Below the pieces are notes generated by a model. The model saw only the letters and a program-made list of their open reading frames with translations. It was not told where the DNA came from and did no database searches. This document shows, in pieces, positions 82 to 51,877 of a DNA stretch of 64,000 bases. Positions within the stretch are counted from its first letter, which is position 1. Each line of letters opens with the position of its first letter. The DNA lies in the IMG/VR virus record IMGVR_UViG_3300024272_002379; one strand, written 5' to 3'. Source of the stretch: a virus (Duplodnaviria; Caudoviricetes). Both the position numbers and the translations under genes were made by a program.

Positions 82-95
82 AATTACACTCCTTT

Positions 96-356
96 CTAAT
101 CTATATCTATCATGTCTACAACTAAATTAGGAATATCAAGATAATATATTTTTCCATCTGTAACAAAGAAGTGTTCTTTCGTTCTTGCATTCATCATAGA
201 TGGTCTAAATGTCGGCTTTTCAAAATCTCCGTTAAACTCCCAGTAGCAGGTTCCTCCTGATTCCTCAGTGAAGAAACAATATGTATTCCCAGACATAGGC
301 GATTCCATTAAGTATCCTATGATAACGCCGCCACGCTCTACTGGTTTGATTTTCAT
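96..356 (-). CDS. DUF6527-like small protein
   Basis: WEFNGDFEKPTFRPSM...HFFVTDGKIYYLD resembles the WxxNGxxxxPTFxPS...HxFVxDGxI signature; GGAG RBS. Confidence 0.6.
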   Translation of the reverse strand: MKIKPVERGGVIIGYLMESPMSGNTYCFFTEESGGTCYWEFNGDFEKPTFRPSMMNARTKEHFFVTDGKIYYLDIPNLVVDMIDID

Positions 357-371
357 TTTTACTATATCTCC

Positions 372-866
372 TTATACTATTATATTATGATATCCGTATG
401 TATAACTATCTGTAAATACAGGCTTAACATAGATGTCACAATTTTCTTCTAGCATATAATCTCTTGAGATAATGTCTAAATAATATTCCATTTCCATTTT
501 ATCGTTTACTGTATATTTTTTCATTACCGTATCTAAGGTAATTAATTTATGTATTCGGTTAAAGCTATAAGCCATTGTACTTAAGCTAAAGCCATTCATG
601 TATAGTCTAAATTGATGGTCTCTATCTAAGTAAGCATCATGTGGAAGTTCCCATGTTGCATTGTCATTGTATGGTAATTCAATACGCTTAATAACTGGAT
701 TAGGGATATTAGGGTTTTCAACTATCTCTAATAACTCCGTTCTGACACCAGAAGCATAGGTGTCATCTTTATACTTAGCATAGATTTCATAAGCGGTAAC
801 ATTTTTAGCAGTCAATCTTCTGAATGTAATTGTTTTCTTAAGTAATGCGGGAATAACGTATTCCAT
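372..866 (-). CDS. hypothetical virion/baseplate protein with a beta-sandwich module
   Basis: 164-aa ORF, GGAGG RBS, end of structural operon; FRLYMNG...YSF...LITL...DKMEMEY pattern. Confidence 0.6.
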   Translation of the reverse strand: MEYVIPALLKKTITFRRLTAKNVTAYEIYAKYKDDTYASGVRTELLEIVENPNIPNPVIKRIELPYNDNATWELPHDAYLDRDHQFRLYMNGFSLSTMAYSFNRIHKLITLDTVMKKYTVNDKMEMEYYLDIISRDYMLEENCDIYVKPVFTDSYTYGYHNIIV

Positions 867-33319: not shown

Positions 33320-36300
33320 CTATGTTAATTCTGCAAATTTATTTGCTAACCAGTTATCGGTTACTCCACTCATATCTGATTGACTGTATACTGATGACTG
33401 TCCGCCACCAGCCATTCCGATAAGTTTAGCATTGTTTCTGTCATCAATGTAGTTTTTTGTTTTTGCTGATACTTTAAATTGTAGTCCACTTTGTTTATCA
33501 TGATATACAACTCTTTGTTTAGAAGCTGGAGCTTGTGCAACAGGAGCTGTCATATCAGGTTCTCCATTGCCACCAGGTCTTCTAGCTGGAGTTAGTGGAG
33601 ATTGGTTTTTCTGATTGTGAAGTATGTTATTTGCAATACCAATTGCTGCTAAAGATGCTACCGTAATTCCTACCGTTTTCATAGGTATTTTACTTACCGC
33701 TTCTTTTGCCGCATCAAAGAAAGAACCACGTAACGTATTCTGCTTCATATTGTTTTGCATTTTTTGATGCATCTTAGAAGCAAGGTTTGCATCGTTAATT
33801 ACTTTATTTGCATCTGCCAATATTTTTCTATGGTGTGCTATAACTTGTTTTGCTTCGGCAGAGCTTGCAGTATATATTCTACCGCTATTAGATGAGTTCT
33901 TTCTAAAATCATATGCTCTTAATGCTCTTTGTGTTCCCAATACAGCATCTGCATATAAGCCTGTCGCTTTTCCTTCGGCAATAATATCGCTAATGCTCTG
34001 CTGAATACGCTGAACATCTTTTGGACTTAGTGATTGGAATTGAATACCCATGTACTCACCAAAACCAACAACAGACGTACTGCTTACTCTATCCCATTCA
34101 AAAACACTAGCCATTTGTTTCGAATCTCTAAACAAACCGTATATTTTCGCTTGTGTTTCTGCTATCAATTTGGAATTGGATGCTTGTAATGCTTGTCGAA
34201 TCTCTCCAAGAGAAGAGCCTCTTGTATTTAATGTATCTCTTAAAGGTCTTACTAAATCTCCTTGAGATAATTCTTCTGCTGCTTGAACATATTTTTCTAT
34301 TTCAGCAAATGACTCTAATAACTTTGATTCTTCACCTATTATATCATATAGACCTTTATTTAAAAAGTCCAAAGATTCGTCATATAATTTTTTACTAAAG
34401 TCTCCAACATTAGTTCTTTTCTGTACAGCTCTAGCCCATTCTTCAGCTCCTCCGCTTGCAGATATAAGTCTTTCTTGAAGTAGCATATCAATAGAACTAT
34501 TAGCATATTTATCTCGATTCTTAGCTATATCAGCATTTAATTGTCTAATTAAAGCATCTACACTTACTCTGCCAGATGCATTAGTAGTATACTGATAAGT
34601 CTGAGCCATTTCATTAATGCTGTCTAATATTTGCTGTCCATTACCTTTAAAAAGACCATTAATGTATTCATAACTAGTTACATTAAATGCCATTTTATCT
34701 ATTTGTGCAAATCTAGGGTCAAAACTTTTAGCTATAGAACCGTCTGCTCCTAGTAATAACGAATTCAATGTTCTGGCTATTTTACGTTCAGCTATATTAC
34801 TATCAGCGATTGCTCGTATTTGACTATTATTTTTATATTCATAAATATTAACGCCAGCACCAGATTCTTTATTAAGTCCAAAAAAGTCTAAAGCTTTGCT
34901 GTTAATTGAGGCTATATTTTTTCCTTCGATTGAAAAAGTTTCACCTGTTTCTTCCAATGTGCTTAAGCTCACTTCTTTGAACATAGCTCTTTTAGACTTT
35001 CCAGAACCCTCAAAACCTGCATACATATATCCTCGGTCATGAGCATCGCCTAAGTCACCTGGTCGAATATATAAAGAATTTTTATCAAATAATATATGTG
35101 TATCACTTGATGCGTCCATAAAAGCTTCTCTAAATGCATTTTGGATTGTGCCATAGATACTACCTTTGTACTCTCCACGATGAGACAGGTCAAGTATCAT
35201 TCTCATGTAATCATCTAATGAGCCTGTATTAATACCTCTGTTAAAAATAACATTGGCACCTTCTAAGTTAGATATATCATACAAACCTCTGAACCATTTT
35301 TTATATATTATTGTCTCGGCGGTTTTTTTATCTACCTTTGAAATCTGTTTATCAAAATCGCTTCTAGTGGTAGACATGATTTCTTGTATAATACTCTTTA
35401 TCTCATCATCGCTGGCTTTAAATAAAACATGATTACTTGCTCGTATCATATTTTCAAGTCCCGCAGCTTTCATTGCTGCTGATGTATCTCTTAAGCTAAA
35501 CATTTGATTTAAGCCAAATGACCACTTAGAAGTTTCAGCAATGTTAAATGCATCAATTAAATGCTTTACGTCGATACCTTTCTGCTCTGTGATGCCAGTT
35601 AAACCTCTGGTTTCAGTTCGCATATTGGACATATCGTTTAATATTGATGTATACTCTTCACGTAATTCATCACTAAACTTAGGGTCATTTACAAATGACA
35701 GTATGGTTTCACGCAAATTAAAGTTTGGTGTGGAAATTGCACCGATATTACTTTTACGTAATGCAGGGGTTAAGGAAGCTTTTATTGAGTCAGCATCTGT
35801 AAGAGTATTGAATCCAGCTCTTTCCCATGCTCCTGTCATAAATTCCGAATGATTAGCTGCATCTAAAAAAGCATCATCTATATCTCTAACGTCTGTATAT
35901 GCATAACCTCTGTCGTCCATGTACGCTTTCACAGCATCCCAATATGCATCTTCTTTGAACGATTTAAGCATTCCAGCAAGAGCATTACCTGTGTCATTCA
36001 ACATATCTTTCTGGAAAGCTTTACCTTCTTCTATCATATTAGCGATAATTTCAGTACCGTAAGTAATACTCTTTTTGTAAGATTGTAACAAGTTATCGTA
36101 TCTATCTTGTCCTATCTTGCCCATGCTGTTACCATCGAGTACTAAATGTAAAAACGTGGTATCACCGTCAAAGTCAACATTTGTGTATACAGACATTGCA
36201 GGGTTTAAGAAACGAATTTGTCTATCCTGAATAGTCCTATCTAATAATACGTTTACGGCAGGCTGCCCTCCAAATACAGGATAACGTAAGTGTTCACCTA

Positions 36301-39300
36301 GTAAACCAACTGTTTCTACGTATTTTTTACCTATCTCTTCAAAGGTTCCAAAGATGCTAGTTAAGGACCCATTTGCAATGCCTCTATTTACATCTCTAAT
36401 GTCAAGCATTGAACTACCAGTTCCAGTATCACCATACAATTCTGTTATTTGTCTGTTTAAAGTTTTTGTGATACCAGCTCCGCCATTTTCAAGCAAATCA
36501 CTATCTGCAATATGGATTCCGTCTATGTCTAACGCATTGATTCTATCAACTACATCTTTTACTTCACTAGGCATAATGGAGAATCTATCCATACCTGGGA
36601 TTGAATATTTGCCTTTTGTACTTCCTTCAAAATCAGCAACAATATCCATACCTGCTTTTCCAAAGTCAAAACCAAGGTCTTTAAAACCTTGTTCTCCTAT
36701 TGCAACCGCATTATTGTAATATTGTTTTCCATCTATAGTTACAATAGAAGCATCACGTAATGTTCTATTTTGAATAGAAGATAGTGGGCTAAGAGTATCT
36801 GCATTTCTTACTTCGCTATCTGCAATTCGAGATAGTTTGGTTCTAATTTCAGCATCTAATTTTGAAAGCTTATTAATATTTTCAAGAGAATCTTCGCCAT
36901 TATGAATAGCTTGTCTTACACTATCTCTTTCTGCAATTAATTTTTGTACGTCATCGCTAAGCATAGAGTCTATAATCGCAGGAGTTTCATCTTGAGCAAG
37001 AAACTGACCAGAATTTGGTAATGCGTATCTACCAAACGCTTTATACATGTCAGAATCTTTTTTCATAATAGCAATTTCGCTATATAGTTGCTGAGCAAAA
37101 TTCTTGTAGTACTCAGACATTTTACCACGCATAGAAGGATTCTTCGCTGCTTCAATCATTTCATTAAAGAAACGAGTAATATTCCTATGCTGGTCCATCA
37201 AGAATTGGCTATCATCTAAGTGAGTTGTAACATTCTGTCTAGGAATTAAAGCACCTCTATATGTTTTTGTATCTTTACCTTTTCCTATTGTTATTTCTTC
37301 TCCAAAATCAAAGAAGATACTGTAACTTTTAGCATCAGTTAATTCAACATTTTGACGTTTAGCTAATGCTTCCAGCCAAGCCGCAGGTTTGCCATCAATA
37401 TCAAAAATGAAATCTTGAAGGTCTTTTACTCTTGCATTCTTTGGAACGTTTTTACCATTCATCAAATCTTGCATTGTAACAGTAACAATATTATATTCCT
37501 TAGGGTTGAAGCTTGCTGGATTTGCATAATAAGCAGAAGCTTCTACAATGCCACGAATGCTGTCTTGATTTGCCAATACACCTCTATTATATCGTCTTAT
37601 TTCACTTATATTGTTTTTCGATATGGCATCTGCTAATTCTTGTATTGCTCCTAAGTCATCACTTAAGAAACCAATACCCTTCCCAACGTCTTTTGACATT
37701 GCATATTCTTTGGTTGCGTCAACATATAAATCATCCCAAGAGCGACCACTTCCACCAACTATACGACCATTAACTCCGTCAATAATACCATCTGTTCCAC
37801 CTGATAAATATTCTTTATTTCTAATACGAATACTTTGCTCAAGTCGCTGGTCCATTCTAAACATGTTACTTAAGTGCTCATTCATATGAACTCTTTGTAA
37901 TGGACCATATATGATGTTATTCTCTCTATTGTATTGAAGTAATTTAGCAATTCTTGAATTAATAACATTACCATCTGTATGTGTTGTAATGTATTTTTCC
38001 AATGCTGTAATTGCTTCAACCATGTGAGCTGCGTTAGTGTTGTCAACAATAAATGTTTGACCGTTATCAGCAATATCTAAAGTCCAATCTTGGAAGTATT
38101 TATATAAACCATTTGACTTATCTTGAATGATGTTCCTTAAATTATCCAACTTACCGAATTTAGCATATTCGGCTTCGATTGTGTACCAAGTAGACCATGA
38201 GGCATAATTGTTATTATGCTTTGATGCAGCAATATTTCCAGCAACACTTGCATTATCGAATATATACTGGAACATTCCATGAGCATATTCCATGGCTTCT
38301 TTTTGTGTACTTATACCAGTATAGCTCATAAACGGTTTCATGCTAATTGTATGAGCAGTAGCTTTTTCTGAGCCAATCATTGTTTTAACGTCACTTATAG
38401 AAGCGTGTTCTGGTATTACATATGTACTTCCCTGTTCAAGTAATTCTTCTATATTCTCAAGGCTAAATTTTGCTTTAGGTCCTCTATAATAAATAGACTG
38501 TCCGCTTTCTGTTACAGCTATAACAGTATTACTGTCTAAATCTTTATATGCTAAATTTCCAAGTATTTTTCTTGTCTTTTGCTCGTCAATGTTGTTAATG
38601 TTAAAACTTACTTTTTTAGCATCAGGAGACTGGAAGAAATCTTGATTGCCTAATAGGGGGTCGAGAAACCATTTACCTTCGTAAACACTACTTAAATCCT
38701 CACGCATATACTGAAGAGTTGCTCTTGCTTTATCAACATCAAGACCCAATGCTTGAGCGATACTCTCTATATTCTTTTCAGCATCACGATATTTTAACTG
38801 TAAATCAATATCACTTATTTGTTTAAAGCGAGTTGTGATAGCTCTTTGCTGTGTATCAAAAGGTAATCCATCTGGAGTAAGTGTTGTTTTCCCAAGCTGC
38901 TGTCTTATACTATATTCTGTTGGAGTTAATGATGTAGGTCTTGCCATTATATACCCGCTTTTCAGTGGGTCATCTACTATTTCACCTTCTAAAGCTTTAA
39001 CATCTATTTCCCCAAGACCAAAATACATAGGTCTATTTTGCTGTGTATAAGTAGGTCTCATAGTACTAAATAATCCAGCAAGATTATTAAAAGCACCAGG
39101 TTTAATAAACGAAATCAACCCATGATTTATAGCAGATTCAGGTAGTAACTGATTAATATAAGGAATTGCTCCTTCAAAAGAAGATAATGCTTCAGCAACA
39201 GATTTTGTATAACGTTTATTATCAGAATCCATAGCTACTGCGTCTTGCATTAGTCGGAAAATACTTTTATCAAAAGACTCTGGTGTATACCCAATATCAT

Positions 39301-42300
39301 CAGGTATATAGGAACTTATTTGCATAGCAGAATCTCTCATTACACTACCATGGAATAGGTTCTTAACAAAAAATTCATTAAAAGCGTTTGATTCTGTAAT
39401 AGCTCTAAACTGTGTGACATTTTTAGCTTCTCTTAAGTCCGCACTTACTATATGCTGCTGCTCATTGAAAATATAGAGCATTTGTTGTATTGGATTGAAA
39501 CCTGATTCCGAATATGTTTCTGCTATTTCACCAATTAATGTCTTTAAACCAGTTACATTCATTTCATATGCATGTAAAAAGTCAGCAGGGTGGTAATTTG
39601 CAATACGTTCAACTCCATTGGCTGTCACATATCCTCTATAACTTGATGGAGATGATAGTTCCTTAAGTTTTGCATTTTGAGTTCTACGAATAGCTGATTG
39701 TGCTTTCTCGAATTCATCATTTAATACGAATTCAATTGCTTTTCCTCCAGCTATTCTATGAGCAACAAGTAAGTCTTCAGCACCCGATTTTATCATGGCA
39801 CTTACTTTTCCATTTTTTGAGTATACGTCAAAAATAGGATTTAAAAACTTTTCTATTCTTCCTTGATTGATAGACGTTAATGTAGCTGTATTTCCTGTAA
39901 TGCCATGTATAGCTTCTGGCATTGAATCACCTAAACTAGTTTTATTTATTCCATACAGTTCTTCTACGGCTCCATGTCCTTCTAATGCACTACTTAATGT
40001 ATGATAATCTACATCATCATTTAAGCCAGAAAGAATTTGTACCACACTATTGCTGTGTTTTTTATTGGTAAGTACTACAAAAGCGTTGGAACTATTTTCT
40101 GGCAGCAAAACGAATGACTGCAATCCTTTTTTAACGTTTTCAGGTGAGTTAATTGCGTAAGGAGCGTAATAAGATTTTCCGTTTTTCTTGTAATGAGATG
40201 AAAACATTTCCTCAACAATTGTTTTCTCATCAGTGCTAAGATTTAATTTACGAGCAATTTTGTTGGAAACGCCATCATGCATGGTTCCTGTATAAAATGA
40301 CATAGAAGTTACATCAGATAAAGATTGTGTAATTCTATCTTCAATAGCTTCTCTGACTGCCTTTTGTCCGAACAAAGAAGACGCCTGATAAAATTTTTCA
40401 CCAGACTGATAACGATAGCGTGACTGAGCACCTGTAAGTAAATTATCAACAATAGATTGCAAGTTCTTATTTGCAATTCTTATATCTGAACCATCAGCTA
40501 GAATTTGTCTATATTCATCTATTGCATTTGATGATGTATTAAATCTATCTGTAATACCAACTAACTGACTTGCTACATCTACAAGAAAACCATTGATGCC
40601 AGCATTTGGCTGGAATGATAAATCTATGCTATGTTTTAAAGATGTTACTTGTTCAGCAGTAATCAAACTTCTTGCTGCTAAGTTTTCTACGACAGAACCT
40701 GCTTCTTGAGCAGTCATGCCATTGAATATATTTCTAAGACCAGGTATGGCACTATCTACTGATTGTGCATTGATTCTTTTAAGCTCATTACCAACTTGAA
40801 CGTCAATACCAAATACGTCACTTAATCCATAATGGGCTTCTTTTGGGGTAAAAGCTATATACTGACTCGTTAAATAATCCATAGTACTATCGTAAGCTTT
40901 TTGTAATGCAATTGTCTTTGTAACATTATTTGCATTACCCATTGTACTATCAATTTGATTAACGATATAGCTAAGAATGTCTTTTTCCTGGCTTAATCTT
41001 TCAAACATACCAGCAAATGCTTGTTCTTGATAAGTACTTCTAAGTGGGCTGTTAGACACACCATGAAGACGAGAAACTAATGCTGGTCTCGCTTTTTTAT
41101 TTGCAAAATCTTCTAATCCATCTAATTCCTCTACAAAACTTAGATATCTTTTTAATCCTTCGAAACCATATTCATCGGTTCCTTTATTTGCACGAACTGA
41201 TAATGGGTCAAAAAATTTTGCGTATTCTCTTCTGCCTTTATCGAGATAGCCCATTACATGCTGTTCGTTAATTTGCTTTTGTGTAACTGCACTATCAGAA
41301 ATCCATGTGGTATTTTTTCTTAAAAACTCGATTGCTTTATCTGGAGTTTCAAACTCTTTATGAATTTCTATAGATTTATCGGCAGGGTTAATAAAGCTCA
41401 AAATAAACTTTTCTTGAGCTTCTCCAGTACTTCCATCTATTACACTTGCAAACCCTGTCTTTTCTGTATTCACTCTCCAATATTCATTACCCATAGAATA
41501 TGACTGAGGAATAGGGTCTCCTGCTATTACAGCCATATCAGATGTAGACTGGTCAATGTATCCTCTATTCATTAAGAATAATGAACCATTTAAATCTACA
41601 TTGTACGCTCCAATTGCATCTCCATTGCCAGTCATTTCTAGTAATGAATCAATAAAGGATTTATTACCATTGTAATGACGGGTGAATATAATATCTCCTT
41701 CGTTTACTGTATCTTCACTACCTATATGTAACTGACTTCTGTTCATGCGTAATGATTCCATGATACTTTCAACAGAAGCAGGTCTATCTGTATCAGATGG
41801 AATAATTCCATGCATTGCATCTGTAAAGCTCAATACAGATTGGCCTTTAGCGGTAGCCATTGTACGAACAGCATTTACAGCGTCAATTGTATTTTCATAT
41901 ATATGTCTAAAGTTAACACCTTGGTTAACCTCTAATCTTCTTGATGTCTGTTCTAATGCAGTAATATCAAATATATTATTTGCTCCTGCTAAAGCAGATG
42001 TATTAGAACCAACAGCATTGTTTATATATGCTGTTAATTGGGGAATGATAGCTTCAGGTCTCGCTCCGCTATTATAAAGTGTCTGTAATCTATCAGCACC
42101 AATTTTCATAATAGCTGGATTCATTGATGATTCGCCAAGTCTATTGACTGTCCAATAATGACCATCTCCAAGAACGGTATCATTTCTACTGAAAAATACG
42201 TCATGGAATGTTGGCAGGCTACCAATTTTACTAACTCTATCAAGAGTTACTTGTTCTGCATTAGTTAAAGCATCCCATCCAGATTTTTCATACTTGCTTA

Positions 42301-42766
42301 TTAAAGATTTAATTGCTAAAGTTTGTTGTTGATTTGTACCAAAAGCAAAAGACACCGCATTGGATAAGTCTGTATTTAATGCTCCATTTTCATAGACACG
42401 TCTACCAATACCAAATTCGGTAATGGTAGCGTATCCATCGTATTTACTTACTTGATGTGCAATATCACCAATAGTTTCAAGGTCCCATACGATTACTTCT
42501 CCAGAGCCTTCAGCTATTGTTTTTGCTTTTTGCCATTGAGGTAATGCACCAAGAGTCTGGAATACAGACTCTTGATTTTGGGAGTTAACGATTCGTAACG
42601 CACCCTCTAATGGATATGAACTTATCGCATTAATTGCAGACTGGTTTGGCTTTAAAACTGTATCTATATATTGTTCTTTGCTGCGTTTATTATATGGTCT
42701 AATATTTGTAATATTATCCCATATCTCTTGTGGGGATACATTATATCCTATAACTTCCATAAACAT
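33320..42766 (-). CDS. giant virion protein: DEDDh exonuclease plus single-chain two-barrel RNA polymerase
   Basis: WDLET / NNIFD / HIGSED at the N-terminus; LRYP...NPAMSVYTNVDFDGD (36161-36286); C-terminal hydrophobic helix. Confidence 0.75.
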   Translation of the reverse strand: MFMEVIGYNVSPQEIWDNITNIRPYNKRSKEQYIDTVLKPNQSAINAISSYPLEGALRIVNSQNQESVFQTLGALPQWQKAKTIAEGSGEVIVWDLETIGDIAHQVSKYDGYATITEFGIGRRVYENGALNTDLSNAVSFAFGTNQQQTLAIKSLISKYEKSGWDALTNAEQVTLDRVSKIGSLPTFHDVFFSRNDTVLGDGHYWTVNRLGESSMNPAIMKIGADRLQTLYNSGARPEAIIPQLTAYINNAVGSNTSALAGANNIFDITALEQTSRRLEVNQGVNFRHIYENTIDAVNAVRTMATAKGQSVLSFTDAMHGIIPSDTDRPASVESIMESLRMNRSQLHIGSEDTVNEGDIIFTRHYNGNKSFIDSLLEMTGNGDAIGAYNVDLNGSLFLMNRGYIDQSTSDMAVIAGDPIPQSYSMGNEYWRVNTEKTGFASVIDGSTGEAQEKFILSFINPADKSIEIHKEFETPDKAIEFLRKNTTWISDSAVTQKQINEQHVMGYLDKGRREYAKFFDPLSVRANKGTDEYGFEGLKRYLSFVEELDGLEDFANKKARPALVSRLHGVSNSPLRSTYQEQAFAGMFERLSQEKDILSYIVNQIDSTMGNANNVTKTIALQKAYDSTMDYLTSQYIAFTPKEAHYGLSDVFGIDVQVGNELKRINAQSVDSAIPGLRNIFNGMTAQEAGSVVENLAARSLITAEQVTSLKHSIDLSFQPNAGINGFLVDVASQLVGITDRFNTSSNAIDEYRQILADGSDIRIANKNLQSIVDNLLTGAQSRYRYQSGEKFYQASSLFGQKAVREAIEDRITQSLSDVTSMSFYTGTMHDGVSNKIARKLNLSTDEKTIVEEMFSSHYKKNGKSYYAPYAINSPENVKKGLQSFVLLPENSSNAFVVLTNKKHSNSVVQILSGLNDDVDYHTLSSALEGHGAVEELYGINKTSLGDSMPEAIHGITGNTATLTSINQGRIEKFLNPIFDVYSKNGKVSAMIKSGAEDLLVAHRIAGGKAIEFVLNDEFEKAQSAIRRTQNAKLKELSSPSSYRGYVTANGVERIANYHPADFLHAYEMNVTGLKTLIGEIAETYSESGFNPIQQMLYIFNEQQHIVSADLREAKNVTQFRAITESNAFNEFFVKNLFHGSVMRDSAMQISSYIPDDIGYTPESFDKSIFRLMQDAVAMDSDNKRYTKSVAEALSSFEGAIPYINQLLPESAINHGLISFIKPGAFNNLAGLFSTMRPTYTQQNRPMYFGLGEIDVKALEGEIVDDPLKSGYIMARPTSLTPTEYSIRQQLGKTTLTPDGLPFDTQQRAITTRFKQISDIDLQLKYRDAEKNIESIAQALGLDVDKARATLQYMREDLSSVYEGKWFLDPLLGNQDFFQSPDAKKVSFNINNIDEQKTRKILGNLAYKDLDSNTVIAVTESGQSIYYRGPKAKFSLENIEELLEQGSTYVIPEHASISDVKTMIGSEKATAHTISMKPFMSYTGISTQKEAMEYAHGMFQYIFDNASVAGNIAASKHNNNYASWSTWYTIEAEYAKFGKLDNLRNIIQDKSNGLYKYFQDWTLDIADNGQTFIVDNTNAAHMVEAITALEKYITTHTDGNVINSRIAKLLQYNRENNIIYGPLQRVHMNEHLSNMFRMDQRLEQSIRIRNKEYLSGGTDGIIDGVNGRIVGGSGRSWDDLYVDATKEYAMSKDVGKGIGFLSDDLGAIQELADAISKNNISEIRRYNRGVLANQDSIRGIVEASAYYANPASFNPKEYNIVTVTMQDLMNGKNVPKNARVKDLQDFIFDIDGKPAAWLEALAKRQNVELTDAKSYSIFFDFGEEITIGKGKDTKTYRGALIPRQNVTTHLDDSQFLMDQHRNITRFFNEMIEAAKNPSMRGKMSEYYKNFAQQLYSEIAIMKKDSDMYKAFGRYALPNSGQFLAQDETPAIIDSMLSDDVQKLIAERDSVRQAIHNGEDSLENINKLSKLDAEIRTKLSRIADSEVRNADTLSPLSSIQNRTLRDASIVTIDGKQYYNNAVAIGEQGFKDLGFDFGKAGMDIVADFEGSTKGKYSIPGMDRFSIMPSEVKDVVDRINALDIDGIHIADSDLLENGGAGITKTLNRQITELYGDTGTGSSMLDIRDVNRGIANGSLTSIFGTFEEIGKKYVETVGLLGEHLRYPVFGGQPAVNVLLDRTIQDRQIRFLNPAMSVYTNVDFDGDTTFLHLVLDGNSMGKIGQDRYDNLLQSYKKSITYGTEIIANMIEEGKAFQKDMLNDTGNALAGMLKSFKEDAYWDAVKAYMDDRGYAYTDVRDIDDAFLDAANHSEFMTGAWERAGFNTLTDADSIKASLTPALRKSNIGAISTPNFNLRETILSFVNDPKFSDELREEYTSILNDMSNMRTETRGLTGITEQKGIDVKHLIDAFNIAETSKWSFGLNQMFSLRDTSAAMKAAGLENMIRASNHVLFKASDDEIKSIIQEIMSTTRSDFDKQISKVDKKTAETIIYKKWFRGLYDISNLEGANVIFNRGINTGSLDDYMRMILDLSHRGEYKGSIYGTIQNAFREAFMDASSDTHILFDKNSLYIRPGDLGDAHDRGYMYAGFEGSGKSKRAMFKEVSLSTLEETGETFSIEGKNIASINSKALDFFGLNKESGAGVNIYEYKNNSQIRAIADSNIAERKIARTLNSLLLGADGSIAKSFDPRFAQIDKMAFNVTSYEYINGLFKGNGQQILDSINEMAQTYQYTTNASGRVSVDALIRQLNADIAKNRDKYANSSIDMLLQERLISASGGAEEWARAVQKRTNVGDFSKKLYDESLDFLNKGLYDIIGEESKLLESFAEIEKYVQAAEELSQGDLVRPLRDTLNTRGSSLGEIRQALQASNSKLIAETQAKIYGLFRDSKQMASVFEWDRVSSTSVVGFGEYMGIQFQSLSPKDVQRIQQSISDIIAEGKATGLYADAVLGTQRALRAYDFRKNSSNSGRIYTASSAEAKQVIAHHRKILADANKVINDANLASKMHQKMQNNMKQNTLRGSFFDAAKEAVSKIPMKTVGITVASLAAIGIANNILHNQKNQSPLTPARRPGGNGEPDMTAPVAQAPASKQRVVYHDKQSGLQFKVSAKTKNYIDDRNNAKLIGMAGGGQSSVYSQSDMSGVTDNWLANKFAELT

Positions 42767-42771
42767 TCCTC

Positions 42772-45700
42772 CTAAATTTGTAATCCAGCTATTTGTCGTG
42801 ATACGTCATCTCTGGCATCTCGTTTTATAAAGAACGATGTTTTATTGCCATTAGATGACTGCATAAAACTTGTTTGAACGTTTTCATATCCCGCCCTACC
42901 AAGTATCTGATTAAGTCTTACTTGTACCTGTCTAGGTCCATTAGTAGCATCAATCATTGGAATAGGGATATTTACTTCATCTGCTTGTTCTAAATCATCA
43001 TCCCAAATATCAAATTCACCTGGGTCTAAATTGTTTTGGTGAACAAGCTTAACTTTAACATCTTCGATGTTTGTACTTTCGTCCCAACCAATCCATGAAG
43101 CATCTGGTAAACCATGGGTTCTAAAATATTCATTTAGAGATGGTTTTTCATCTACTGGCATTCCCCATGCTGATTGTAAAGCTCTTCGTAAATAGCTTGG
43201 TGCAATACGTAAGATTTTTTCTTTTTCTTCCTCTGGAGCATCTACAAAGTGTTGGAAATATTGACGTTCTTTCTTAGGAAGAGCTGTCATGATATTTACA
43301 AGAGATTCTCCAGGGTCATATCCGTACATAGTTTGTTCTGCCGCTTGTTTAAATTCAATGGCTTTTAGTGCATTTTTTGGTAACTTTGTTACCTTACGTT
43401 GACTTTGTAATTCACCCAGCTCTTTATTAATGGCACTTATCGTTTGTTTTTTGCTCATTGATTTATCAACATATTTCGGCTCTCCATACTTAAAATTATA
43501 CCTATCTCTATGTTTGAAATCAAGTTTAACCTTGCGTTTGTAATCTGTAAGTTCTTGTTGTCTTAACTTATTAGATACGCCTTTTGCTTCTTTTGATTTC
43601 ATGAATGTTTCTACGTCAAAGTGGTCTTCTTTTTTAGCTTTCACTTTATATTGTTCATAGAGGCGTATATTTTTAACGTATTTTAAAATGTCTACGTATT
43701 CATTGAGTTTTTCTTGCTCTCTTCTACGTTTTGGTCTCCAGTCTCTATCCTCATTTGAGCCAGCAATAAAAGCTACTTTACCAATAGCTGGAACGGTAGC
43801 TCCAACAACAGTGCCTACTAATTTACCAAATCGCCCTTTTCCAAATAAGCTTCCAATAAAGCCACCCATAAGAATTCCGCCTAAACCGCCAAGAGAATTA
43901 TTTGCAATATTTTCTTCTATATGTGGAATAAGTATATCTCTAATAGGATGATTCCATGACTGGAAATCTTTTGAATAAACTTCACGTTTACGATACTGTT
44001 CATAAGGCGAACGTACTTGCAAAAACTTACTTCCAATAAATGGAATATTTCCAATAACATCATGAGTTAATGTTTCCATAGCTGAACCAAAAGCAATTTC
44101 CCCTTTTGTGTATCTAGCCTGAATTGCTGCTGGGGAATTATCATTCTCTTTTTCTTTAGCATGACCTTTGTTTAATAATACCTGATTTACGTTTACTCCT
44201 CTGGAATGAACTACAGCTCTTATTGAACGAGATGAATCTTTTGAGTATTTATTATGTTCATCAGCATCATAAGAGATTCTGATTCTTGCTCCTGGTCTAA
44301 TATATTTTCTAATGGCACTTCTTGCTGCATCATTTTTGGTACGTTCTTCGTCATACATTTCACTATTAGACATAGATACATTTATGCCAGCAAATTTAAT
44401 AGCATGTTGTTTGCCATATTCTTTCGTAACGATTGTATTGTTATCTATAATCTTAGTCACTGTTACCGTTTCGGTTTTAAGATTCGATGTTTTAAATTTA
44501 TAATCATAAACTCTTAAAGGCTCTTTTTGCTGTTTAATACGTTCTCTTATTTGTGAAGCTTCTTGTTGCTCTTCAGGTGATAAGTCTTCACGACTAAGTT
44601 GAGCAGAAACATCTTTAAATTCCTGTGAATAAGGAGCTACGTCTGCAAGTATTCTAAATCTATCAAGGGTGCTATATAATTCACCTCTTCCGATTTCGCC
44701 TCTTTCTATTGCTTTTCTTATAGTTTGACGAGCTTCGTAAACATTTTGTAATGTCTTCTTAAGTTCGCTTTCGCTGTAATCAAATCCAACGGTATAGGTA
44801 TTATTAGGATTCTCTTTATCAACGTAATAAATGTATCCCTTAGAATTCGTATTTCCAGTTGCCCACAAATAGAAATTAGTTTGTCTCATATGATGAGTTA
44901 ATGGCTTACCCGACTTACGAATTTCATTTAACTTTTTAGCAGATGTGGACTTAATATCTACAATAGCCACGCCAGTAGGAGAAGATAAATCATGAACCTT
45001 TGCATCGTACCATCCAATAATTCCATTACGTTTATCTTCTACTTTACCTTCTACGTCAATCGCTAAACCTGCATCTAACCATGATTGTTGTATCTGTTTA
45101 TGAATTTCGTTACCTTTTTCAAGAGTATCTTCTTCAAATGTGCTCATATATTTATCAGCTTTTAACATGTGCTTAATAATATAATCTTTTTCATATCCGA
45201 TAGAAGAAGAGCCTATATTAAACTCCATTAGACCCTTGATATTATGCAGTCTTTCATATCCCTCTCCAGGTAATCTTTCTTCGCCATTATCTATTTTTGA
45301 ATAAGGGTCTCCATGTTTAAAATCTGTAAAATAATCAGAGCCTGGCATCCATGACGGCATTGTGTTTCTAATAGGGTTTACATACTCTGTTTTATTATTT
45401 CGCTTAGGAATAAAACGACGAGTGATTTCGGATAACGTACCGCCAAAACCGCCTAGATTTTCTTCCCAGAAATCATTATTAAAACTATACGCATACCCAG
45501 AGTTCTCTATCATTCTTGCCTTTTCATTTGCTTCTCCTGTAACGAATGTCTGTAAAGCAAAGCCTTTTAAACCAGCTATATCGCCTAACCAGTTAAACTG
45601 TTCGCCTAATCCATATACAAATGCATTATCTATTAATCTATTGTCGTTACCTACTGGAATTCCAGGCCCAGTAATATTGGATATACTTACTCTTTGTTGA

Positions 45701-48700
45701 GTACCGATTACTTTATTAAGACTGTATCTTTGTAAATCCTGATTAACATTATATAAATTCATTGTATCTGGGACATCTACCACATTTAAAGCACCAGATG
45801 GAGTACTATAAACTTCATAAGGAGTGTTGTATCTATCGTAAGTTCTTACTGGTAAAATACTTCTTTGCTCGAAGTCAATACCTGCATTATCTCTAATGGT
45901 TCTTTTAGTAATCTGTTTCGCTTGATAAGCAGATGTATATAAGTTATTGCTGTCGGCAATAGCAGAAGCGGCTGCACTTTGTTCTGCTCGATTAAAGGTA
46001 TTAATGTCCCTTTCTGAGTTATCAAAAGAAGACCTGCCTTCAGTTAACAATGTACTTGGTAATTCATCCATGGGATTTATCTGGAATCCATTTTGCCAAT
46101 ATTCTAGGTGCATCTTTTGAGGTGGGCTAATAACACTTCCAATAGTAGAACCAAACAATGGTCCTATGATTGGTATATTTTGTCCCACTGGAGCAGTTTG
46201 CAAATATGGTCTATCGTAATAATGTTTTTTATCATAATAATTACGATTAAAAATAAAGTGATTTAATGGAGCCAATGGATTTACAGGATTAGGGAACCAT
46301 GTATTATTATAATACTCTTGACGAGAACCCCATTTAGAATCACTAAACTCTACGTCAGCTTGTACACGACGATATAAATTAGGTCTGAAATACATAATCT
46401 TTCCACCAGTGAAAGGTGTATTACCAGAACCCCAATAGCGTCCTTTACGAATTGGGTCGTAACCATTTTCAATGTATTCTTCACGTTCCTCTGCTGTTTG
46501 TCCTAATCCTAATTGATATACGCCAGGCAATTCGTTTATCTGGTCAGAACCTGGTGTCATTTCTCCTAAGAATTTAAATAACTTTGTAGCCCCTACTAAA
46601 TCCATTGCATGATGAGCCCCAATATCAATTGGTCTTACTACATTACGCATCATGAATTTTGTTATATTGTCTCGGTTACCTGTTTCATCTCCAGACCCAA
46701 AAAATGGTTCTGATAAGTAATTAATTACACCAGGAACTTGAGTAGCTAAAAAGATAGGCAATGCTCTTTTAGTTAGTAAATTCCATGCCATACTAGTAGA
46801 TGAGCGTTTACTATCTATACTTAAGCCTAGTAAGTATGAAGCACTTCCTAATCCTTCTGATAACTGATTTAATATAGACCAAGTAAATCCTGAACGTTCA
46901 GTGAAAAACTCATGCATTGTATTATCGGCATTACGGCCTACAAAGAATTGCTTTGCAAAACCTTCAAGCTCATGAAGGGCTTTATCGGTATCTCCTTGAC
47001 TAAAATAATTATAAGCCTGAGAAACTTTAAATCCTTCTTTTGTGGTGCTGTACATACGAGGCTGAAAATCTTTACCGTCTACTTTGAATTTTTCATGCCC
47101 TTCACCAAATACGCTCTTGTAATTAAACTGTCTTACCTGATTTAGCATTTCCTGAACGTCATCATATTCATAGCCATTTACACGAACTTTCTCTGTCATT
47201 TTATTGATAAGATTGTCCATGAATTCGTCAAAGTTTGTTGCTGTATCCAATGTTCTTTCGACATCTTCTCCCATAGGTCTGGACTCTTGATAACCCATAT
47301 CTAAGAACTTACTAGCTTCGTATTTAAACTTCTGGAATTTATTTAACTCAACACCTTCTTCTCTAAGAAGGGCTTCGTATTTATCTAATGCTATCTTTTG
47401 AGCTTCCCCCATACTTAAGCCACTCATCTGACGTGTAGCATTATGCATAGGTTTTAAACCGTATGATTCGTCTGCATAGGTAATGTCATGTAATTTAAAA
47501 CCACTACCTAACTCTTGAAGCTGGGCATTCCCATCAGTGGTATATGCCTTACCATTAATGATAGCTATATTTTTATATCTATAATCATCCCCAAAAGTTT
47601 CTGCCATCCATTCGCCTATCTTGTATTCTCGTCCACCCATTCTTGTAATATTGGCATCATACTGTTCTGAATTAATTAATCCCATTAAAGGTTTACGACG
47701 ACCTATTTTATCAAATCCAAATAATGTTTTGAATGGATTAAACTGAACTAATGGTAACTTGAAATCATTAGCAAGAGAATGAGCAAATTCTATCATATTA
47801 TTTTTTGACATACGATAATCTATAATGTGACCAGATTCATTGATTCTAATGCTGGAATCTACTATTATGTTTTGCCAATCTCCACTTGCAAAAGCATTGG
47901 TTGGTTTCCCATCTTTCATATATCTATGAGAGCTATATGAAAAGAAATCATTTACACTATCCAATAGTGATTCATATTTTTCATTTGTTCTTGAGTCTAT
48001 ATTGAAATCAATGCCTTCTTTTCTGACCAATTTTCTAACGCCGAATTCATCTCGTGTTAATTCAGCTACATCTCCAAGAGTAAGCTTGCGATAACCAGAT
48101 TCACTTAATTCTTGTGCTGCTTGTCTTGGATTTAAGGTCATTGCATTCATGAATTCCTCTATTGCTTTAGAGGTAAACTGAGTAGCTTGCGTAGGAGCAT
48201 TTTGTCTGGCATCAAGTTCTAGTCCACGCAATTCTTTCATACGATAATGAAGGTCTGTATTTAAATAATTAGTTCTTTGAGTTGCCAAATTACTTTGACT
48301 ATCTTGTATCATTTTGGAAAGAAGACCAATGTCTTGTTTAGTTCCTTCCATTAACTCTCTCATTCGATGAAAATTAGTTTGTCTAGTTCCAGATATATCT
48401 TTAAAGTCTTGCATTAAATCATAGAATACGCTGGATTCCCTATCTCGAAACAAACTCATTTTAGGCATTGTATAGTTTTGATTTTGACTAATAGGTTTAA
48501 GATTTGACCATTGTTTTATTGTACGCATTACCGTACCTGCTCTATCCGTACCTTCTCTGGCAATATTATCTGCAAGCTCAAGCAAAGGTCTCATGATATC
48601 TTTTAATGCTCCGCTTTTAAATAATCCATAACCAGTAGCACCAACAAGTCCAATCTTAATCATATTGTACAATGGGTCATTATCGCTTGTATCCTGATGG

Positions 48701-48756
48701 TCTATATGTGTTTGAGTGTTTAGAATTCTTCTTTCTAATCTGTTGTCTGATAACAT
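42772..48756 (-). CDS. tape-measure-position giant protein with PD-(D/E)XK nuclease and thermonuclease-like domains
   Basis: Directly follows the tail chaperones; GNEIH...VE...YDA...VDIKS...QTNFY; VTKIIDNNTI...FAGIN...VNQVLLNKGHA; Gly-rich hydrophobic segments. Confidence 0.75.
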   Translation of the reverse strand: MLSDNRLERRILNTQTHIDHQDTSDNDPLYNMIKIGLVGATGYGLFKSGALKDIMRPLLELADNIAREGTDRAGTVMRTIKQWSNLKPISQNQNYTMPKMSLFRDRESSVFYDLMQDFKDISGTRQTNFHRMRELMEGTKQDIGLLSKMIQDSQSNLATQRTNYLNTDLHYRMKELRGLELDARQNAPTQATQFTSKAIEEFMNAMTLNPRQAAQELSESGYRKLTLGDVAELTRDEFGVRKLVRKEGIDFNIDSRTNEKYESLLDSVNDFFSYSSHRYMKDGKPTNAFASGDWQNIIVDSSIRINESGHIIDYRMSKNNMIEFAHSLANDFKLPLVQFNPFKTLFGFDKIGRRKPLMGLINSEQYDANITRMGGREYKIGEWMAETFGDDYRYKNIAIINGKAYTTDGNAQLQELGSGFKLHDITYADESYGLKPMHNATRQMSGLSMGEAQKIALDKYEALLREEGVELNKFQKFKYEASKFLDMGYQESRPMGEDVERTLDTATNFDEFMDNLINKMTEKVRVNGYEYDDVQEMLNQVRQFNYKSVFGEGHEKFKVDGKDFQPRMYSTTKEGFKVSQAYNYFSQGDTDKALHELEGFAKQFFVGRNADNTMHEFFTERSGFTWSILNQLSEGLGSASYLLGLSIDSKRSSTSMAWNLLTKRALPIFLATQVPGVINYLSEPFFGSGDETGNRDNITKFMMRNVVRPIDIGAHHAMDLVGATKLFKFLGEMTPGSDQINELPGVYQLGLGQTAEEREEYIENGYDPIRKGRYWGSGNTPFTGGKIMYFRPNLYRRVQADVEFSDSKWGSRQEYYNNTWFPNPVNPLAPLNHFIFNRNYYDKKHYYDRPYLQTAPVGQNIPIIGPLFGSTIGSVISPPQKMHLEYWQNGFQINPMDELPSTLLTEGRSSFDNSERDINTFNRAEQSAAASAIADSNNLYTSAYQAKQITKRTIRDNAGIDFEQRSILPVRTYDRYNTPYEVYSTPSGALNVVDVPDTMNLYNVNQDLQRYSLNKVIGTQQRVSISNITGPGIPVGNDNRLIDNAFVYGLGEQFNWLGDIAGLKGFALQTFVTGEANEKARMIENSGYAYSFNNDFWEENLGGFGGTLSEITRRFIPKRNNKTEYVNPIRNTMPSWMPGSDYFTDFKHGDPYSKIDNGEERLPGEGYERLHNIKGLMEFNIGSSSIGYEKDYIIKHMLKADKYMSTFEEDTLEKGNEIHKQIQQSWLDAGLAIDVEGKVEDKRNGIIGWYDAKVHDLSSPTGVAIVDIKSTSAKKLNEIRKSGKPLTHHMRQTNFYLWATGNTNSKGYIYYVDKENPNNTYTVGFDYSESELKKTLQNVYEARQTIRKAIERGEIGRGELYSTLDRFRILADVAPYSQEFKDVSAQLSREDLSPEEQQEASQIRERIKQQKEPLRVYDYKFKTSNLKTETVTVTKIIDNNTIVTKEYGKQHAIKFAGINVSMSNSEMYDEERTKNDAARSAIRKYIRPGARIRISYDADEHNKYSKDSSRSIRAVVHSRGVNVNQVLLNKGHAKEKENDNSPAAIQARYTKGEIAFGSAMETLTHDVIGNIPFIGSKFLQVRSPYEQYRKREVYSKDFQSWNHPIRDILIPHIEENIANNSLGGLGGILMGGFIGSLFGKGRFGKLVGTVVGATVPAIGKVAFIAGSNEDRDWRPKRRREQEKLNEYVDILKYVKNIRLYEQYKVKAKKEDHFDVETFMKSKEAKGVSNKLRQQELTDYKRKVKLDFKHRDRYNFKYGEPKYVDKSMSKKQTISAINKELGELQSQRKVTKLPKNALKAIEFKQAAEQTMYGYDPGESLVNIMTALPKKERQYFQHFVDAPEEEKEKILRIAPSYLRRALQSAWGMPVDEKPSLNEYFRTHGLPDASWIGWDESTNIEDVKVKLVHQNNLDPGEFDIWDDDLEQADEVNIPIPMIDATNGPRQVQVRLNQILGRAGYENVQTSFMQSSNGNKTSFFIKRDARDDVSRQIAGLQI

Positions 48757-50476: not shown

Positions 50477-51091
50477 TTAAAACTTAAAATTATATTTAAT
50501 ATCTGAAGAGGCTGAACTTTCTTCTGAAGTATATTTGTCTACGTCAGATATTTCATCGGATTCCGTTATATCTCTAGCAATGAACTCGTATATCTCGGAT
50601 ACGGGATTACCAGATGTATCAACTTCAACACTTACGCTTCTCATAAATACATCTTTGATTGTTTTAGTAATAGAGTTGTTACCGAAAACAATTCTAATAT
50701 CTTTTCGATTACGTCTATGCATTTTATAGTTATCGTCATCAAAAAAGGAATTGTAATGTGGTGAAGTGCTTGAGTCATCATTTGAATGCTCTTCATTATC
50801 ACTGTTATCTTCTACTGTGTCGCTCATTTTATTTGAGTATACAATCATAGCTTGTAATGTGTCTGTTGTTAATATTCCAGTAGAGTTCATGCCTACCATC
50901 TGTTGAAATTGAGATACAGCATCGGCTACGGTGTTATCATATGTTGTGGTGTAAGTAATTTCTATTCCACATTTATCTAGTAACTGACAAACTTGGTTTA
51001 CGAAATCTCCATTAATTAAAGTACCTGCACTGTTGTAATATAATTCACTATATTCATATCTTGTAAGCTCAGGTATTGATTGTGGTATCAT
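50477..51091 (-). CDS. peptidoglycan-binding domain plus C-terminal half of a tail-tube-like fold
   Basis: AVSQFQQMVGMNSTGILTTDT (PG_binding_1); DIRIVFG...YEFIARDI. Confidence 0.65.
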   Translation of the reverse strand: MIPQSIPELTRYEYSELYYNSAGTLINGDFVNQVCQLLDKCGIEITYTTTYDNTVADAVSQFQQMVGMNSTGILTTDTLQAMIVYSNKMSDTVEDNSDNEEHSNDDSSTSPHYNSFFDDDNYKMHRRNRKDIRIVFGNNSITKTIKDVFMRSVSVEVDTSGNPVSEIYEFIARDITESDEISDVDKYTSEESSASSDIKYNFKF

Positions 51092-51103
51092 TGTTACACC
51101 TCC

Positions 51104-51865
51104 TTAAGTTTCTATGTAACCTTCTACTCCATTTTTTGTCATTACATATGCCCAACCGTCATTCCAGTTGTCCAACACATAAACATCTTGAGGTTCACTT
51201 AGAACTTCATATGCAAAACTAGGAGAAGGCCCTAAGTACAACTTAGTATTTGCTGGTACTGATATGATTTGATTATTACTTTCAGAAACTGCTTTGTCTA
51301 TTTCCTTTTTTGTTTCCGTAGTAAGAATACCGTTTGCATCTAAGTTATGAGCTGCCTGGAATCTTTTAATTTGCTGTTCCAATATAAACTTGCTCGAATT
51401 GTAATCTAAATCATACCCTAAGTTAATAAGTTTTGTTCTATATTCAAATACTTCATCGCTTTCAACATACACTGTATCTGAATTAGTTATCTCTTGTTCA
51501 GTAATCCATTCAACAGCATCCATCAATTCTTGTTGATTGTTATTGTAATCCTCAAGAGTATTGCTCTGACTTCTTTTGATAATATCGTACATTGGAGATT
51601 GTGCTTCTGGATTTTTAATAGGTACTTTAAATGTTCCAGTAACAATACGATTTCCCACTGCTACATCATCAAAGGTTCTTGAAGCGTACCCATATAAAGG
51701 CTTTAATTGTTCTTGTAATGAATAACTTATATAGGCAATTTCTGTCTGTTCAACATCGTCTATATAAATTTTGGTATCAGTACTAGAATAATATTCTTCC
51801 ATAAATAGGTTTTCTTCTGTTTGTTCTATTCGAGGAATATATCTATGTGTTAATGAGGTTGCCAT
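51104..51865 (-). CDS. N-terminal half of a tail-tube-like fold plus PG-binding and SH3-like domains
   Basis: YSSTD...ISYSLQE...PLYGY...GNRIVTGTF; IKRFQAAHNLDANGILT; GWAYV...EGYI. Confidence 0.7.
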   Translation of the reverse strand: MATSLTHRYIPRIEQTEENLFMEEYYSSTDTKIYIDDVEQTEIAYISYSLQEQLKPLYGYASRTFDDVAVGNRIVTGTFKVPIKNPEAQSPMYDIIKRSQSNTLEDYNNNQQELMDAVEWITEQEITNSDTVYVESDEVFEYRTKLINLGYDLDYNSSKFILEQQIKRFQAAHNLDANGILTTETKKEIDKAVSESNNQIISVPANTKLYLGPSPSFAYEVLSEPQDVYVLDNWNDGWAYVMTKNGVEGYIET

Positions 51866-51877
51866 TTCATCACCCCT

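Follow-up and report, generated by a model that had tools for sequence, protein, structure and literature searches.

Virion RNA polymerases (RNAPs) allow phages to begin transcription without the host enzyme, and there is only partial understanding of how the characterised ones, from N4 and crAss-like phages, come by a usable template inside the cell. Both crAss-like phi14:2 gp66 and N4 gp50 are giant early-gene polymerases that are delivered from the virion and favour single-stranded or hairpin templates: gp66 transcribes single-stranded DNA (ssDNA) and denatured DNA, not double-stranded DNA (dsDNA) (10.1101/2020.03.07.982082), and the N4 virion RNAP (vRNAP) is inactive on dsDNA and requires an extruded hairpin (PMC13492108). 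In the Thermus phage P23-45, a two-barrel RNAP responsible for pre-early transcription resides on gp96, a giant tail-lumen-type protein in which the polymerase is fused to the tape measure (PMC10770324). Here we report on a giant gene from a 64,000-nt stretch of DNA of a tailed virus of the Caudoviricetes (IMG/VR record IMGVR_UViG_3300024272_002379, analysed in full and referred to below as the window), the product of which is predicted to join a DEDDh 3'-5' exonuclease and a two-barrel RNAP core in a single chain.

The open reading frame (ORF) in question lies at 33320..42766 on the minus strand, extends over 9.4 kb and encodes 3148 aa, with homologs of 3100-3650 aa presenting a matching layout. 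From N- to C-terminus, its product comprises the exonuclease, a conserved uncharacterised region, the RNAP core, a further uncharacterised region, a transmembrane (TM) helix and a conserved C-terminal tail. Residue numbers given here count from the first ATG (42766), and 2 should be subtracted from them if translation starts at the ATG at 42760. Based on the AlphaFold2 model and its fold matches, the predicted DEDDh domain encompasses residues ~88-385 (41612..42505, minus strand); the initial annotation had placed it at 41700-42500, an interval that correctly captures the span from ExoI to ExoIII but falls short of the full fold.

The translation of the ORF contains, in order, the three motifs on which that annotation was based: ExoI VIVWDLET (residues 91-98; 42473..42496, minus strand, with D95 at 42482-42484 and E97 at 42476-42478), ExoII GANNIFD (residues 261-267, including N263 and D267; 41966..41986, minus strand) and ExoIII HIGSED (residues 347-352; 41711..41728, minus strand). 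The H347-x4-D352 arrangement of the latter is the signature of the 'h', rather than the 'y', subclass. The region hence carries the motif set of the DEDDh superfamily (D-x-E on the first beta strand in ExoI, N-x2-[FY]-D opening a helix in ExoII and H-x4-D in ExoIII), with the ExoII helix mapping to residues 264-278 in the AlphaFold2 model. ExoI is followed by a beta-2 motif, ITEFG (T116, E117), in a stretch reading ...ATITEFGIG, and the resulting VIVWDLET...ITEFG succession mirrors LDTETTG...IIEIGAV in E. coli Pol III epsilon. Across 40 full-length members aligned with MAFFT, at 23-85% identity to the query, residues D95, E97, T98, G100, E117, N263, D295, H347 and D352 are invariant (40/40), and the ExoII acid D267 is an aspartate in 38 of the 40 homologs and a glutamate in the remaining two, which corroborates the claim that the catalytic residues are intact. 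Averaged over columns, the exonuclease region is as conserved as the remainder of the chain. A local hhalign comparison of the family profile with E. coli epsilon placed ExoII on NAAFD and ExoIII on H162..D167, a weak match (E 0.065) covering those two motifs only, since insertions defeat global alignment.

In so long a protein, the bare three motifs taken alone are suggestive only: a minimal regular expression (D.E / N..[FY]D / H....D, with suitable spacing) matches 91 of 2000 shuffles of the 3148-aa sequence, and the same arrangement with the extended ExoI form D.ET.G matches none of 2000. The identity of the domain is therefore decided by conservation and predicted fold, and not by the bare motifs. 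For residues 1-480, AlphaFold2 modelling with 26 homologs as input gave a mean predicted local distance difference test (pLDDT) score of 88.7 and a predicted template modelling (pTM) score of 0.79. Searching 48,161 representative chains with VIA-align, independently of Foldseek, we obtained as the best match Pol III epsilon (1j53; Z 12.8, root-mean-square deviation [rmsd] 2.7, 168/174 residues aligned over 90..373 of the model), followed by further DEDD nucleases, among them Cas2-DEDDh (Z 12.3), the DinG exonuclease (12.2), 3'hExo (12.0), ExoI (11.8), Pop2/CAF1 (11.3), TREX1 (10.5), RNase T (10.3) and ISG20 (10.1). All of the best 50 rows are DEDD-fold nuclease domains, comprising 49 nucleases or polymerase exonuclease domains and the RNase H-like domain of ESRP1. 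Foldseek against the PDB likewise returned RNase T, TREX1/2, a DnaQ domain, CRN-4 and PARN with probability 1.00, so that the RNase H-like DEDD fold proposed in the initial annotation is supported by the model. Hsp70/DnaK rows in the Foldseek output (probability 0.3-0.7) were rejected on account of their template modelling (TM) scores of 0.11-0.15 and rmsd above 19 Å.

Compared to Pol III epsilon, the domain carries ~115 additional residues, most of them in a helical insertion (residues ~165-255) that separates strands 3 and 4, and this conserved insertion within the exonuclease fold may constitute a substrate-binding element. At the sequence level, the conserved insertion (42001-42328 in the window, residues ~147-255) displays the motif GW..L...EQV.L.R.S, with G163, L167, E171, R177 and S179, and sub-threshold matches to DUF6576 occur within it (residues 152-180) in five of ten members. 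Directly C-terminal of the exonuclease, a beta-rich domain (residues ~390-480; 41327..41599, minus strand) is modelled with pLDDT 80-94. Its conserved positions include G402, S424, W430, G438 and a YS.GNEYW motif, and it falls outside the span of the VIA-align fold matches.

What speaks against the exonuclease assignment comes from the sequence libraries. Pfam, NCBIfam and PDB searches (phmmer and profile), run on residues 1-500 and on the whole protein, yielded no significant exonuclease match; Pfam RNase_T (PF00929) matched neither the window protein nor nine fragments; and the ESM Atlas returned no usable match. The nearest signals are an N-terminal RNase_T match below the cut-off in a homolog from one of the complete IMG/VR genomes (11 bits, E 0.06) and a weak match of residues 203-295 to phrog_192, 'DNA polymerase exonuclease subunit' (E 7e-4). 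The case for homology is hence one of motifs and predicted structure. On balance, we consider it likely that residues ~88-385 form a catalytically competent DnaQ-like DEDDh 3'-5' exonuclease that is an ancestral, fixed module of this protein family, and this is the best explanation of the evidence as a whole. The domain also illustrates how enzymatic modules in giant phage proteins stay unannotated.

The alternative that the domain is an inactive relic, which only binds nucleic acid or acts as a structural spacer, could draw on its invisibility to sequence libraries and on the ~115 inserted residues. Relics, however, normally lose their catalytic residues, and here all five are kept in more than 40 lineages reaching down to 23% identity, with E in place of D at a single position in two members as the only departure, which makes this reading very unlikely.

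The RNAP assignment is likewise model-based. Folded separately, residues 1340-2420 (35507..38749, minus strand) yield an AlphaFold2 model with pLDDT 83.7 that corresponds to a single-chain two-barrel RNAP core, and the metal-binding motif DFDGD of the beta'-like barrel is found at residues 2198-2202 (36161..36175, minus strand), in the context NVDFDGDT (residues 2196-2203). DFDGD is present in every full-length homolog, corresponding to the invariant alignment columns D859, D861, G862 and D863. Foldseek rows for this model are all RNAP beta'-type subunits, as weak matches. With VIA-align, RDR2 and QDE-1 were matched at Z 8.8 across both barrels (residues 22..1081 of the model) and beta'/Rpb1 subunits at Z 8.4-9.3, with the AR9 and phiKZ non-virion RNAPs (nvRNAPs) among the leading matches and P74 gp62 (8F5M) at Z 7.4. 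Upon re-alignment, the best 50 rows are all RNAP largest subunits and 350 re-aligned chains reach Z>=8, with Z values that are moderate throughout. The proposed N-terminal fusion of the nuclease to an RNAP thus holds in that a two-barrel core with an invariant DFDGD resides on the same chain, but the two modules are not adjacent: ~950 conserved residues of uncharacterised role separate the end of the exonuclease (385) from the RNAP core (~1340).

With phmmer run exhaustively over 1.84 billion cluster representatives, 40 relatives were identified, each of them either 3100-3650 aa long or an obvious fragment, and a word-indexed search added further relatives. Using the RNAP region as query, we recovered eight more clusters, seven of which are full-length and harbor both ExoI and ExoIII; the eighth (P0058, 1763 aa) begins inside the RNAP core and is most likely a fragment. 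All full-length members of the family, which comprise about 49 clusters of 3100-3650 aa, contain both the exonuclease and the RNAP module. These searches confirmed no stand-alone or exonuclease-less form of the family, and the short matches (180-766 aa) align like truncated pieces. Searched by tblastn, 50,697 phage records contained no match to either the exonuclease or the RNAP region. Within IMG/VR, the N-terminus as query found no related loci and the C-terminal tail recovered relatives. The tail-gene arrangement is shared, and the RNAP encoded in single copy, in two IMG/VR genomes of 208 and 218 kb that are complete and carry terminal repeats.

The genomic context of the gene is that of a tail module. 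The uncultured window phage is contractile-tailed, with a tail sheath gene at 54596-57004, and the family members are encoded in contractile-tailed phages of ~210 kb. The sheath is followed by tube-like genes with peptidoglycan-binding domains, small genes, the gene for a 1994-aa protein, the exonuclease-RNAP gene and the gene for a 1898-aa tail lysin. PG_binding_1 domains were observed in three of the tube-region proteins (50477-53569). The upstream neighbour, the 1994-aa protein (42772..48756, minus strand), occupies the tape-measure position and contains a PD-(D/E)XK nuclease domain at residues ~1204-1354 (PF12705, 22.9 bits against a cut-off of 22; phrog_1706, 8e-11). The 1898-aa tail protein (27608-33304) combines three cell-wall hydrolase domains, NlpC/P60, glucosaminidase and Hydrolase_2. 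At the junction between the two giant genes (42755-42780), the TAG stop codon of the upstream gene overlaps AGGAGG, the ribosome-binding site of the exonuclease-RNAP gene. This element sits 7 nt ahead of the second ATG (42760) and just 1 nt ahead of the first, and because of that spacing the true start is probably the ATG at 42760 (M3), giving a product of 3146 aa. A database entry for the family (P0002) has precisely that length. A Gram-positive host is suggested by the strength of this Shine-Dalgarno sequence in combination with the peptidoglycan-binding and hydrolase domains.

Both giant proteins, of 3148 and 1994 aa, are completely devoid of Cys. The other 35 ORFs of the window encode 195 Cys in 17,333 aa (1.1%), and at the window average about 35 would be expected in the 3148-aa protein. 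Nearly all homologs in the ~49 clusters also contain zero Cys. Absence of Cys may mark proteins that have to cross the tail channel in unfolded form, a mode of passage that has been proposed for N4 vRNAP/gp50 (PMC13434306), and zero Cys in both giant tail-lumen proteins may serve to recognize tail-threaded proteins from sequence. Given the position of the gene in the tail module and this Cys depletion, we infer that the exonuclease-RNAP protein is housed in the virion or tail lumen and that, upon infection, it is threaded into the cell as an unfolded chain. Its sole strongly hydrophobic segment in a hydropathy scan lies near the C-terminus (residues ~3027-3050; 33617..33688, minus strand), and the ~70 residues that follow are the best-conserved part of the chain according to the conservation profile. 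The hydrophobic helix and this conserved tail may function as a membrane or baseplate anchor. Helix and tail together span 33323-33688 in the window, and the conserved tail after the helix reads ...VYHD..SG.NFKVSAKT...GVTDNWLANKFAEL.

Regarding other polymerases, the two complete relatives (G001 and G002) encode a DnaE-type polymerase (PF07733, 1.5e-72), and harbor no Pfam-detectable family A or B polymerase, no other RNase_T domain and no Rpb1-type gene. In G002, two frames of 440 and 746 aa, separated by ~2.5 kb, share the DnaE match between them, and an intein, an intron or a split gene could account for this. These observations bear on the idea that the two-barrel core is a DNA polymerase akin to PolD, with the DEDDh domain as its proofreader and the whole protein as a replicase. 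Proofreading DNA polymerases characteristically combine exonuclease and polymerase on one chain, PolD is a precedent for DNA synthesis by a two-barrel enzyme (PMC7281927), and the lack of a Pfam-detectable family A or B polymerase in both complete relatives would accord with this idea. Yet both relatives possess DnaE, the fold matches of the core are all RNAPs or RNA-dependent RNA polymerases (RdRPs), with none to PolD, and the motif is of the RNAP type (NVDFDGD). Moreover, the gene is located in the tail module, and its product lacks Cys and carries a membrane segment near its C-terminus. We consequently regard a replicase as highly improbable, and rejected it on the basis of the RNAP/RdRP-only fold matches and of DnaE in the relatives.

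For the function of the exonuclease, we favor, tentatively and by analogy with known virion polymerases, a role at the incoming genome. The exonuclease would enter the cell together with the fused polymerase and thereby reach the entering DNA, where the DEDDh domain would hydrolyze free 3' ends by a two-metal mechanism. By trimming 3' tails or the 3'-ended strand, whether at nicks or at the end of the incoming genome, it would expose single-stranded template for a polymerase of a class that performs poorly on duplex DNA. This 3'-end trimming is favored because known virion RNAPs are poor on duplex DNA and because the core resembles QDE-1/RDR2 as much as it does beta'. A number of considerations weigh against it. 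DEDDh enzymes generally favor single-stranded 3' ends, and many of them stall on reaching duplex; long resection of a blunt duplex end would therefore be atypical. Resection of the 3' strand would also yield a template read toward the genome terminus, serving only outward-facing terminal genes. In addition, the exonuclease is far removed from the RNAP core along the chain, and the fold ranking fails to separate DNA- from RNA-specific relatives, whose Z values lie within 1-2 units of each other.

Template preparation at the entering genome, editing of RNA 3' ends and an anti-host or anti-defence activity are close rivals, with the first a tentative preference and the other two somewhat less probable. 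The initial annotation had likewise named genome-end processing, RNA editing and anti-defence as options. An RNA-directed exonuclease would remove 3' nucleotides from nascent or backtracked transcripts, in proofreading or restart, or trim transcript 3' ends. Such a role would suit the presence of the domain on the RNAP chain in all ~49 clusters of the family, as well as the RNases among its close fold matches (3'hExo, Pop2/CAF1, RNase T and ISG20), and DEDDh exoribonuclease (ExoN) domains do partner viral RNA synthesis (PMC7968707), as with the coronavirus polymerase. The DNA-specific epsilon, Cas2-DEDDh and DinG nevertheless score equal or higher, and the distance of ~950 residues from the core counts against this role as well; fidelity would be of little import for a few early transcripts. 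For backtracked RNA, two-barrel RNAPs in general rely on cleavage by their own active site, and none is known to use a DEDD domain for this purpose. We rate RNA-directed activity as possible but doubtful, and place at much the same level the proposal that the exonuclease acts as an injected weapon which, along with the neighbouring PD-(D/E)XK domain, degrades host, plasmid or rival-phage DNA, or ssDNA or RNA made in defence, independently of the RNAP. The occurrence of two nuclease types in adjacent, translationally coupled, Cys-free giant proteins is in line with this proposal, and the fold relatives of the domain include TREX1 and its homolog Plex9.1, both of which degrade DNA, as well as Cap18, an exonuclease encoded in a CBASS defence operon. 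The few copies deliverable per virion, however, fit a local task better than bulk degradation, and the invariable association of the domain with the RNAP across the family points to a common task. From the chemistry of the family, cyclic nucleotide signals, which present no free 3' end, would not be DEDDh substrates.

The broader proposal that exonuclease and RNAP form one injected machine, in which the DEDDh domain would act on the first DNA entering the cell and either make the single-stranded template required by the fused polymerase or edit the RNA 3' end, is itself a tentative one. If true, this would be a virion RNA polymerase assisted by a nuclease, the first of its kind, and would explain in a new way how injected polymerases access duplex phage DNA. 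A conserved 3'-5' exonuclease on an RNAP chain, apparently active as judged from sequence and model, provides in any case a testable mechanism, whether end resection, RNA editing or counter-defence.

PDB sequence and profile searches detected no match to gp96 or to other characterised virion RNAPs (N4 gp50, phi14:2 gp66), and no paper describing such a fusion emerged from full-text literature searches on virion RNAPs together with exonuclease, DEDD or DnaQ terms, in agreement with the initial assessment that a DnaQ-type nuclease on an RNAP chain is unusual. The motifs, their order and the fold of the domain are shared with Pol III epsilon (1J53), Cas2-DEDDh (8FYC), DinG (9II8), RNase T and TREX1/2 and, like its counterparts in Cas2-DEDDh and DinG, it is an accessory unit fused into larger nucleic-acid machinery. 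It departs from other DnaQ-like enzymes in its ~115 extra residues, in a divergence too great for Pfam RNase_T, NCBIfam or PDB sequence searches, and in its fusion to an RNA polymerase in a 3148-aa, Cys-free tail-module protein. Nidovirus nsp14 ExoN (PMC7968707) offers a parallel in tying a DEDDh exonuclease to viral RNA synthesis, but nsp14 is a separate protein of an RNA virus that acts with a right-hand RdRP in proven proofreading, whereas the domain examined here is fused to a two-barrel enzyme encoded by a DNA genome.

Among virion polymerases, phi14:2 gp66 and N4 gp50 are podovirus proteins packaged in the head for which no nuclease domain has been reported, and N4 gp50 is a T7-like right-hand polymerase, in contrast to the two-barrel core predicted here. 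P74 gp62, one of the fold matches of that core, is a relative of the non-virion enzyme of P23-45. In P23-45 gp96, the RNAP is N-terminal on the tape measure, whereas here it is internal to a separate protein whose gene adjoins, and is translationally coupled to, the gene in the tape-measure position, and the paper on gp96 mentions no exonuclease or other nuclease (PMC10770324). The components of the exonuclease-RNAP protein are known, and what is new is their combination and its tail-module setting in a myovirus-type jumbo phage, which would add a fourth architecture to the known giant virion RNAPs.

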